From the IMG/VR virus record IMGVR_UViG_2671180360_000006: a DNA stretch of 21,446 bases. The stretch is one strand, 5' to 3'. The position numbers were made by a program. Within the stretch, counting starts at the first letter, position 1. The number at the start of each line of letters is the position of its first letter. This stretch comes from a virus. Taxonomy: Duplodnaviria; Heunggongvirae; Uroviricota; Caudoviricetes. Positions 15,001 through 18,000 of this stretch are shown here, piece after piece.

Positions 15001-18000
15001 AGAATCTGCCCCACCCCTGACGGGTCAATACCGATATGGTCCAGTAACTCAGCCTCATGAATGCGACGCACATATTCCGCCACTTCCGCCGTGTCATCCC
15101 CGACACGCCGGACAATGGTCATATCTCCACAGGCAACAAGATCCTGAAACCGGGACGCCTCGCTCTTCCGTCGGACCACCGCGGTTTCATGCGCCCAGGC
15201 ATGGCCCCAGCCCAGCCATTCGCGGGTCTCCCGGTCACGCCCAATCACATACATCCCCAGCAGATCATCCAGCCCTCCGCCGTCAATCCCCACCGTCACC
15301 ACATCAGCACGACGCAGGATATCGTCCAGGCTGACGCGCCTGCCCTGCTCTTCCCAGAAATCCGCGCCCGCCCAGCGGTCAGAACGCAGGGCAAGACCGA
15401 TTTCCACATTGGCGTGTTTTGACATGAAGCCACGAAATGCTTCCTCACCAGCCTCCCGGGCTTTACGGTACTCCCGGTACAGAAAGGCCTCATCCACTGA
15501 ATAGCCGAGATTCGGATTGACCATGGCGAGGTTTTCCATCAGCAGGTTAGCCCCGCTTTCCACCATTTCAGGAGGGTGTTCAAATATCACCGGCAGAAAG
15601 TGCGGATCATGAATTTTGCCGTCGCGCACATCCCGGGCGTACTGCAGTTTCTGTCTGAACACCCCGGCGGGCGGTTCATTCGACTGGGTGGTCGTATACA
15701 CCACAAACCCTTCCGGGCGGGAGGCAAGGCCGCCTATGGCTTCACGTAACATGTCCTCCGCCTTGCACTGCTTGCCAAACAGCCACAACTCATCAATCAG
15801 CGTACCCACGGACTTGATACCGGACACCGTATTCGGATCGGCTGCCACCACCTTCAGGGTGGTGTCCGTCACCCGGTGGGTGATGGTCCGGATATGGGTC
15901 TGTACCTGGCAGAGGTCATCCAGATCATCGTCACGTCGTACCATATCCCGGGCAGGGTTGAAGGCGTTGGCCGCCACCTCCACAGTCGGGGCCAGAATCG
16001 TGTAACCCGCCGCCTGCCGCCAGTTCAGTAACAGTGCAGTCATCATGATCCCCGCGGCCAGCGTGGACTTCGAGTTTTTCTTGGGGATAAGGATAAAAAC
16101 TTCCTTGATATGGCGTACACCGGTCTGCGCATCGTAGGAGCCAAACAGGGCCGCCACCAGGTCAAACACCCACGGTGCACAGGACTCCCCGAACGTAGGG
16201 CTACCAGGTGCATCCACAATCCGCAGTTGTTTAAAAATCGCCAGGGCATGTGCGGCCTGCTCCGGATAAATCGGAGCCGGAATAATCGACAGCCCCTTTT
16301 TCAGGCGCTCTGCCCAGTCCGGGCAGGCCGTGCTCCACACAGGTATCATCCGTTGCCCTCATTATCATTATTCACCACCAGGCGGGGTGGTGGTGGCACC
16401 GCAAAACGGTTAGCCGCTTTTTTCGCGGCGTCACCTTTTGCCGATTTTTTACCGGCATCCCCTTTTTTGTGGTGCGTGAACTGCGCCAGCTTATAAGCCG
16501 CATCCAGCGCCAGCCTGGGGTCGGTATTAATGTTCTCCACCAGAAGACGCCCCATCGCTTTCACCGGATCGGGAAGACCATCCTCCATATATTCAATACC
16601 ATGAGATATCACCGCGGGCGGAGGCATCTCCGGATTGTTTTCGTCCGGCTGTGGTATTGCAGCCGCCTCACGGCGACGGGGTTTATCCTCCTGCTCTGAT
16701 TTTTTCTGCCGGTAAACAGGAACCTCATCCACCTCCACCGTCTCGCATTGTTTACGGGCTATAAACGCAAGCACCTCCGGATCTTTTGCCAGCTGCGAGC
16801 CTTTAACCCTGGCGGTCTTCGCCGAATAACCAGCGGCAATGGCTGACGCTGTTTTGTTTTTCCCGGACATGAGCGCCAGCGCAAATTTTCGTTTTTGCGT
16901 TGTCAGCACAGCCTCCTCCCGGGTCCAGAACGCACTCAGCCGGGTATGGTTCAGCCCATTTTTCCCGGCGTCTCATGCCGCAAATGTTAACTGCTGCCTG
17001 GTTAACATTTGCTGAAAAAGCCAGTTAACATTTTTTCCGCACAACAAACTGAATAATAAAGATAAAAACCGCAAAAATGCCCGGACAGCCAGTTAACATG
17101 TTAACTGCCCTGAAACGGGAATTTTTTCTCTGCGTGAGAGGGGGGGCGGTGTCCAAAGCGATCTTTTTTTACGCCGGATGATACCCCCCCCGGGTCGGGT
17201 TACAGTCCGATGATGTCGTCCGCTCTGCCACTACCTCCGGACACCTCCGGCAGCGTCGGGTCTGGCATACCACTCGCCGCTTCACGAGCAGACTTTTGTC
17301 GATGGCATTCGGTACAGAGCGTCCAGAGATTCGTCTCCTCATTACCACCACCGAACTGAAGTGCAATGCGGTGCTCAAGTTCACTGTCACAAAGGTCAAC
17401 CACACGCCCACAGAGACAGCACTGTCCGGCATCCCTCAGCCAGATACGACGCTTGAGGGAAACCCGGGCACTACCACTGACCCGACGCTGTTCACCCTTC
17501 AGGACATTCACCCGCCGGGTGTTCAGAGTTTTGATTCTGCCCGGTAACGTACGAAGCACAGCCATGTAAAATCCTCTCCATATAGCTTGTCACCAGAGGA
17601 AAGAAAATGTCATCGAAAAACCGGACCCGCAGAACCACAATCCGCAATATCCGTTTCCCCAATCACATGATTGAACAGATCAATATCGCCCTTGAACATA
17701 AAGGTTCCGGTAACTTTTCAGCGTGGGTTATTGAAGCCTGCAGGAGAAGGCTGGCAACAGATGCAACGCATCTGCGTCCGGCCAGCATGACAAATAACGA
17801 GAAATGAACGTTCGGTTACAGGAGCAGGTACCCACTGTCCTCCAACAATATTTCATCTTCATACCCGGCGGAACAAGACTTACCCAGCCGGAATGTACAG
17901 AATAACAACAGAGTGATAATTAATTTCTGATGAAATAATCAGGGTGCAGAAGGACTAAAGATAAACGTTTTCTTCACGCCTTTACGCGGCCTGTCCTTCT

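Follow-up and report, generated by a model that had tools for sequence, protein, structure and literature searches.

What function has the array of short repeats upstream of the terminase genes in IMG/VR virus record IMGVR_UViG_2671180360_000006, a Caudoviricetes sequence of 21,446 nucleotides (the whole stretch is called the window below)? The genes concerned are all on the minus strand, in the order HNH endonuclease, 290-bp intergenic region, small terminase (terS), large terminase (terL), protease-capsid fusion and portal. A first-pass annotation of this DNA had placed a GTTAACAT repeat array between terminase and HNH, upstream of the small-terminase gene, which agrees with the gene coordinates (HNH 17200-17565, terS 16346-16909). 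It had proposed the repeats as terminase recognition sites of the cosB kind. This proposal is supported by a mapped cut site, by the invariance of the motif cores, and by the presence of other, lineage-specific repeats at the same position in relatives. From the sequence comparisons reported here, the array is probably the TerS-recognition (cosB-like) part of the cos, or cohesive-end, site in an HNH-assisted, 3'-overhang lambdoid phage of the Shiga toxin (Stx) Stx1/Stx2c BP-4795/1717/2851 type.

The repeat array

The 8-mer GTTAACAT is present in exactly five copies in the window, both strands counted, all of them inside 16984-17105. Three copies are on the plus strand and two on the minus strand. 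Dinucleotide-preserving shuffles contain it 0.38 times on average and at most twice, and the earlier claim of at least five core copies in both orientations is borne out. Four of the five copies share the 10-mer ATGTTAACTG, and the remaining copy reads ATGTTAACCA. Across the whole window, the only 8-mers that reach four or more copies per 130 bp are related to GTTAAC. Two overlapping motif copies build a perfect palindrome, CAGTTAACATGTTAACTG, at 17090-17107. It had been described as 16 bp long; the palindrome is real and its length is 18 bp, and it is the sole perfect palindrome of at least 14 bp across the 21-kb window. The inverted repeat GCAAATGTTAAC/GTTAACATTTGC at 16980-16991 and 17001-17012 was described correctly, with 12-nt arms that are 100% complementary and a 9-nt spacer. 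The elements of the array are as follows; numbers with a sign are counted from the nick at 17138/17139 (see below), positive in the direction of terS.

17090..17107 (+32 to +49), no strand assigned: proximal site, palindrome CAGTTAACATGTTAACTG, with motif copies at 17092-17099 (plus) and 17098-17105 (minus)
17024..17031 (+108 to +115), plus strand: distal motif copy 3, invariant in 54 unique relatives
17001..17008 (+131 to +138), plus strand: distal motif copy 4, right arm of the 12-bp inverted repeat, invariant
16984..16991 (+148 to +155), minus strand: distal motif copy 5, left arm of the 12-bp inverted repeat, invariant

The cut site and the virion ends

The induced Stx1 phage Lys8385Vzw is of the cos type, with 3' cohesive ends CGCCCCCCCT mapped by PhageTerm (Zhang et al. 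2021, PMC7946995). Its record, MT225100, starts with CTCACGCAGAGAAAAAATTCCCG and ends with GGACACCGCCCCCCCT. The start equals the minus strand of the window from 17138 downward, and the end equals the bases running up to 17139. From its left end, Lys8385Vzw matches the window without a difference (100% identity) for 516 bases, and as far as the end of terL the two are 96% identical. Because the mapped ends coincide with these positions and the left end is identical over 516 bp, the overhang is assigned to 17139-17148 of the window; the 10-nt 3' end given here is thus that of the published Lys8385Vzw mapping, carried over by identity of the left end and of the overhang sequence.

17139..17148, minus strand: cosN, 10-nt 3' cohesive end, CGCCCCCCCT on the minus strand and AGGGGGGGCG on the plus strand, with nicks at 17138/17139 and 17148/17149

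The cut at 17138/17139 puts the array at +32 to +155 of the first-packaged end and the terS start at +230. Mapping of virion DNA ends had been named as a check on the proposal, and the ends of this near-identical phage fall beside the repeats. The array had also been described as lying next to a G/C-tract region. The adjacency holds, with the refinement that this region contains the cut site itself, as the overhang covers the G7 tract. A second mapped end is available for Acinetobacter phage fEg-Aba01, whose 10-nt 3' end CGCCCCCCAT was determined with PhageTerm and whose cohesiveness was demonstrated by a heat-and-cool gel assay (PMC7354433). This end is at the position homologous to the cosN of the window, in a phage whose TerS is 30% identical to that of the window. 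A scan of genome contigs with the cosN 19-mer gave a single match, which is unrelated (Edaphobacter).

Constraint within the E. coli lineage

Related IMG/VR loci were collected by an exact search with the nick-site 19-mer (58 loci) and by a search with the A-tract box described below (more than 120 loci), and were grouped into classes A to D by what lies between the nick and terS. Class A comprises the E. coli loci, including the window, and carries the CAGTTAACATGTTAACTG palindrome and three distal copies. Constraint was measured in 54 distinct class A sequences from loci retrieved via the TerS protein alone, so that the intergenic DNA lies outside the ascertainment. Of the 229 columns from the nick to the terS start, 57 vary; among the 38 columns of the five 8-mer cores, none does. 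The hypergeometric probability of this is 6e-6 for the whole stretch and 2.6e-5 for +32 to +158 alone, both values being indicative rather than exact since the sequences are related by descent. By segment, the varying columns number 19/58 in the spacer, 28/71 in the leader, 3/31 in the left-end box, 1/18 in the palindrome and 6/51 in the distal cluster. The single variable column of the palindrome is a flank base, and the six of the distal cluster all lie between or beside the cores. The 14-bp core of the palindrome is also invariant across 122 box-anchored class A loci. These counts show that the motif cores are under purifying selection, and conservation in related prophages, which had been suggested as a way to check the motif, is found for every core column.

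Class A has at least two cohesive-end alleles at 17139-17148, CGCCCCCCCT and CGCGCCCC(C/G)T, which differ at columns -7 and -2. Among the 54 unique sequences, G is present at -7 in 30 and at -2 in 21. Since the alleles differ, prophages that share the array may have non-complementary ends.

Relatives with the same nick site and other repeats

Two elements flanking the array and cosN are kept across the relatives.

17108..17138 (+1 to +31), minus strand: conserved left-end box CTCACGCAGAGAAAAAATTCCCGTTTCAGGG, an A6 tract followed by TTCCC and then TTTCAG
17184..17191 (-46 to -53), minus strand: G8 run (C8 on the plus strand), possible cosQ-like right-end element, position kept across classes

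Although their TerS proteins have diverged, the relatives from E. coli, Salmonella, Acinetobacter and Burkholderia all have a recognisable left-end box, CTCACGCAGAGAAAAAATTCCCGTTTCAGG. Its A-tract (+10 to +22) is located roughly where the TerS of HK97 binds (+15 to +29). A run of 5-9 G, about 45-55 bp upstream of the nick, is found in all classes, and its length ranges from G7 to G9 within class A. It is kept even in class D and in Burkholderia phage vB_CB2a, where the C-run of cosN is not conserved. The run could be a cosQ-like termination element or a contact for TerL or HNH.

The repeats themselves differ between the classes. Class B (Salmonella phage FSL SP-016 type) has TGTAAACATGTTAACA or the perfect TGTTAACGTGTTAACA at the same position and no distal copies, and its repeat overlaps the terS start codon, which is preceded by a good Shine-Dalgarno sequence. 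Class C (Acinetobacter) has two to three direct AGTTAAAG repeats at +33, +46 and +57. These are non-coding and invariant in about 44 distinct loci ascertained through TerS; three copies, differently spaced, are also retained in a subclass whose TerS identity is 66%. Class D, a single contig (L199) with the HNH-terS-terL-capsid gene order of the window, has a 16-bp palindrome, TATGTACATGTACATA, centred at +40.5 and distal ATGTACAT units at +110.5 and +132.5. In the window the palindrome is likewise centred at +40.5, and the first two distal copies are at +112.5 and +135.5. Comparison of the class D and window spacers gave no sign of homology (local score 9, shuffle mean 8.0, 154 of 500 shuffles reaching 9). 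A pattern scan of IMG/VR for further class D loci returned L199 alone, and blastn against phages returned none. A metagenome scan with AAAAATTCCCGTTTCGGG gave only chance matches and terminator-like hairpins.

Classes A and C have their first GTTAA at +34/35; that of class B is at +42, the position of the second copy in class A. In every class a GTTAA core or palindromic element begins at +33 to +35. The terS start is at +230, +40, +73 to +89 and +162 in classes A to D, respectively. Since the distance of the sites from the nick is kept while the terS start moves, the sites are fixed relative to the nick and not relative to terS. Identity between the classes is 32-55% for TerS (37-70% in its helix-turn-helix region), 52-84% for TerL and 34-59% for HNH; the TerL range is that of the E. 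coli, Salmonella and Acinetobacter classes, with class C TerL about 52% identical to that of the window. In a further, GC-rich IMG/VR contig (L221) the A-tract box is kept, a GTTAA repeat is absent upstream, and the encoded TerS lacks the helix-turn-helix domain. The L221 protein starts with MAGKPGRSGGARPGAGRPKK, a basic, AT-hook-like arm in place of that domain. Taken together, the loci show that the repeat changes between lineages with differing TerS while the nick site stays.

Two explanations other than a packaging site can be weighed against these comparisons. In the first, the copies are neutral relics, duplicated 5' ends of an ancestral terS (ATG TTA AC, Met-Leu-Thr) that remained after an insertion of about 190 bp between cos and terS. 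Class B indeed has the same sequence as a real terS start with a good Shine-Dalgarno sequence, and the matching ATG in the window opens a mere 24-codon open reading frame (ORF). However, the cores show no variation although neighbouring columns do (P about 6e-6), the non-coding repeats of class C are conserved, and class D, an independent lineage, has the same geometry with another motif. Copies in both orientations and perfect palindromes are also not products of tandem duplication. An ancestral terS start as the origin of the motif accounts for its source, but not for the invariance, the inverted copies or the class D parallel, and neutral relics are highly improbable.

In the second, the array would control transcription or translation of terS or of an antisense transcript, the motifs being operators or promoter hexamers; in those relatives in which a site covers the terS ATG, autoregulation would result. 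The motif does overlap the terS start codon in class B and in Burkholderia phages, the predicted leader RNA has a hairpin made of the 12-bp inverted repeat, and two motif copies make up a promoter-like match on the plus strand (TTAACA, 18 nt, TAACAT; 17002-17031), which mimics a sigma-70 promoter and points antisense, towards cos and HNH. Such matches number one against 0.6 expected from shuffles, though, and the stability of the leader RNA fold does not significantly exceed that of shuffles (z = -1.45). No intrinsic terminator was found in the array region, and a search of Rfam gave no hit at E <= 1. The sites are fixed to the nick, with a distance to the terS start that ranges from 0 to 75 nt. 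In lambdoid phages the late genes are read through from an upstream late promoter, and by this analogy no promoter would be needed here. A control function for the array is quite unlikely.

Proposed recognition by the small terminase

The proteins that could read or cut this site are encoded by the following genes.

16346..16909, minus strand: terS, small terminase, proposed reader of the motif, with a GTG start and Pfam Terminase_2 (PF03592) at residues 2-57, E 1.3e-8
14688..16349, minus strand: terL, large terminase, ATPase and nuclease, with Pfam TerL_ATPase and TerL_nuclease
17200..17565, minus strand: HNH endonuclease, immediately upstream of cos, with Pfam HNH and PHROG 589

The Terminase_2 match of TerS exceeds the curated cutoff, and the Pfam scan gave no other family. 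The protein belongs to PHROG 641 (E 2e-68). A profile of four TerS sequences matched the DNA-binding domain of SF6 G1P and the SF6 small terminase in the PDB (4zc3, 2cmp, 3zqp) with E 1e-4 to 5e-4. On the basis of the Pfam and PDB profile matches, TerS is of the SF6/SPP1 type with an N-terminal helix-turn-helix. TerL is 23% identical to HK97 gp2 (E 1e-10). The HNH gene is 51 bp away from the overhang.

In the proposed mechanism, the helix-turn-helix domains of an oligomeric SF6-type TerS would bind units of the form ATGTTAAC(T/A)G. The ancestral primary site may be the palindrome (+32 to +49), as every class has an equivalent of it, and the three distal copies (+108, +131 and +148) may be accessory sites that were added in the E. 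coli lineage. The T-tract-rich spacer of 58 bp would bend or wrap, so that proximal and distal sites contact one TerS assembly. This nucleoprotein complex would position TerL, aided by HNH, on the conserved box and the C7 tract, where staggered nicks would leave the 10-nt 3' overhang. Packaging would then run into terS.

Several points weigh against TerS as the reader. TerL and HNH diverge between the classes too (52-84% and 34-59%), and the covariation therefore does not single out TerS. Class D and the TerS without a helix-turn-helix are represented by one contig each. In class B and the Burkholderia phages the motif overlaps the terS start and the Met-(Ala)-Leu-Thr codons, so that coding may partly explain its conservation. 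A perfect palindrome is better matched to a twofold dimer than to a ring of Cn symmetry. The TerS of HK97 has just one binding site, a 15-bp A-tract at +15 to +29 (PMC11331095), and by analogy the true primary site for TerS here could be the conserved A-tract box, at +10 to +22.

These points lead to an alternative in which the motifs are packaging sites read by another protein: HNH, TerL, or a dimeric DNA-bending protein of host or phage that organises the cos complex. HNH and TerL differ between the classes as well, perfect palindromes (18 bp in class A, 16 bp in class D) are typical of twofold dimers, and the resemblance of the A-tract box to the HK97 site would leave the GTTAAC units to another factor. 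This alternative is nevertheless considered unlikely. No consensus for integration host factor (IHF) is present, and among TerS, TerL and HNH only TerS has a recognisable sequence-reading helix-turn-helix domain. The TerL of locus L001 is 84% identical to that of the window, yet the number of distal sites differs, and the locus whose TerS lacks the helix-turn-helix domain (L221) is without the repeat.

Recognition by TerS can be extended to a more specific reading, which is advanced tentatively as a whole. The array would be a modular, swappable cassette for packaging specificity, in which an SF6-type TerS is grafted on HK97-type cutting (HNH, 3' overhang). It would form a lambda-like bipartite site of proximal palindrome, bent spacer and distal copies, an architecture that may have arisen at least twice, with the motifs GTTAAC and GTACAT, at one conserved nick site. 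It might also act in cis to allow defective neighbours, Stx prophages among them, to be packaged by a single functional terminase; this is suggested by the up to seven co-resident prophages per enterohaemorrhagic E. coli genome that share the exact array.

The spacer and the leader

Between the palindrome and the distal copies, and between the array and terS, lie two segments without motif copies.

17032..17089 (+50 to +107), no strand assigned: A/T-rich spacer with T tracts, 62% A+T, candidate bend
16910..16979, minus strand: variable leader from the array to the terS start, with Shine-Dalgarno sequence GGAGGAGG and GTG at 16909

The spacer, with 62% A+T overall, has a 39-nt core of 74%, and the whole window has 45%. 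T5 tracts are found at +62-66 and +71-75, 9 bp apart, and an A6 tract at +103-108. In the 239-bp stretch searched, the IHF consensus WATCAANNNNTTR has no match with fewer than two mismatches; three matches with two mismatches occur against about 1.1 expected, and two of the three are the palindrome itself. Of the earlier suggestion that the A/T-rich stretch is a bending or IHF-like site, the A/T richness and the phased T-tracts remain, and the IHF part falls, the best match to the consensus having two mismatches. Only intrinsic bending is suggested, because a credible IHF consensus is lacking. The exact spacer sequence is unconstrained, as 19 of its 58 columns vary in class A. In a recombinant class A allele (L051, L132), sharp divergence begins right after the last motif copy.

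On the minus strand at 17026-17100, an ORF of 24 codons, MLTGCPGIFAVFIFIIQFVVRKKC, runs from an ATG at the centre of the palindrome to a stop in the TAA of motif copy 3. It is located where class B relatives have the true terS start. Its variants carry mostly non-synonymous changes (RKK to WEK in L132), for which reason a gene was judged improbable, and the ORF is probably a by-product of the T-rich spacer.

Comparison with known packaging sites

The cosB of lambda consists of the sites R3-I1-R2-R1, which are bound by gpNu1, and lambda and phage 21 form a specificity pair. As in lambda cosB, the element of the window is located between the nick site and the small-terminase gene at the first-packaged end, and its short motif copies, which point in both directions, span about 125 bp, interrupted by a bendable A/T-rich segment. 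The classes described above resemble the lambda/21 pair in that cosN is common while repeat and TerS differ. Unlike in lambda, the TerS is of the SF6/SPP1 type (Terminase_2), without homology to gpNu1 by Pfam or PDB profile. The overhang is 10 nt and 3', whereas that of lambda is 12 nt and 5'. The window also differs in having HNH beside cos, no IHF consensus, and a perfect palindrome as the proximal site.

With HK97 the window shares an HNH gene (gp74 in HK97) immediately upstream of cos, a 10-nt 3' overhang, a distantly homologous TerL, a recognition element that lies a short way in from the left end, and an A-tract at a distance of 10-30 bp from the cut. The small terminases are unrelated, however (BLASTP against gp1, E = 1.2), and HK97 TerS reads its single site through the central channel, with no repeat array (Chechik et al. 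2024, PMC11331095). Homology with the recognition system of HK97 was rejected, given the unrelated TerS and a left end without GTTAAC repeats in HK97.

The window TerS shares the N-terminal helix-turn-helix fold family with G1P of SPP1/SF6. In SPP1, pacL and pacR are recognised via multiple short repeated boxes and bent DNA. SPP1 and SF6 are headful pac phages without defined cohesive ends or an HNH partner, whereas close and distant relatives of the window have precise cos ends. The lactococcal sk1/936-type and staphylococcal phi12/phiSLT-type phages are HNH-dependent cos phages with HNH beside the terminase genes and repeats near cos that were proposed to bind terminase; they differ from the window in hosts, motifs and TerS sequences.

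Distribution and significance

A total of 93 phage records contain the intergenic region at 95-100% identity. Converting phages for Stx1a, Stx2a and Stx2c are among them, such as BP-4795, 1717, 2851 and YYZ-2008. Among 5426 complete E. coli genomes, 1244 carry the array region; the copies total 2945, with as many as seven in one genome. In the records inspected, the intergenic stretch is essentially unannotated. A full-text literature search for GTTAACAT returned unrelated papers only, and further literature searches gave no description of the element. Terminase recognition arrays beside cosN are well known as a kind of element, and the array adds an undescribed case, in a group of Stx prophages that is very widespread and of medical importance.

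The cut site and the probable recognition sites define the minimal cis-acting packaging signal of these toxin-carrying phages. From this follow testable predictions on cross-packaging and on mobilisation among co-resident, often defective prophages, a link that is inferred. The natural variants, with the same nick site and a different repeat and TerS, are a ready-made series for specificity swaps, which could serve in studies of DNA recognition by an SF6-type helix-turn-helix small terminase of a cos phage. In the literature covered, the only structurally resolved complex of a TerS with cos DNA is that of HK97, whose TerS is unrelated.

The right cos arm and neighbouring genes

Homology to the 1717, 2851 and phi330 phage group ends inside the C8 run, at about 17187-17191 (query 1-282 of 290). 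Because homology stops there, the right cos arm is taken as a mosaic junction of differing upstream modules. In PPompW prophages, the IS110-family element ISEc20 is inserted exactly at the C/G run, at about 17187 (locus L249, LC567822.1, 2875-4333). Past ISEc20 neither HNH nor the lysis genes are found, and the next genes are those for tRNAs and Q; cosN, the array and the terminase genes are thus kept in these prophages, and the HNH partner is lost.

Between terL and the portal gene, at 12687-14624 on the minus strand, a 645-aa ORF fuses a prohead protease (Peptidase_S78) and a major capsid protein (Phage_capsid).

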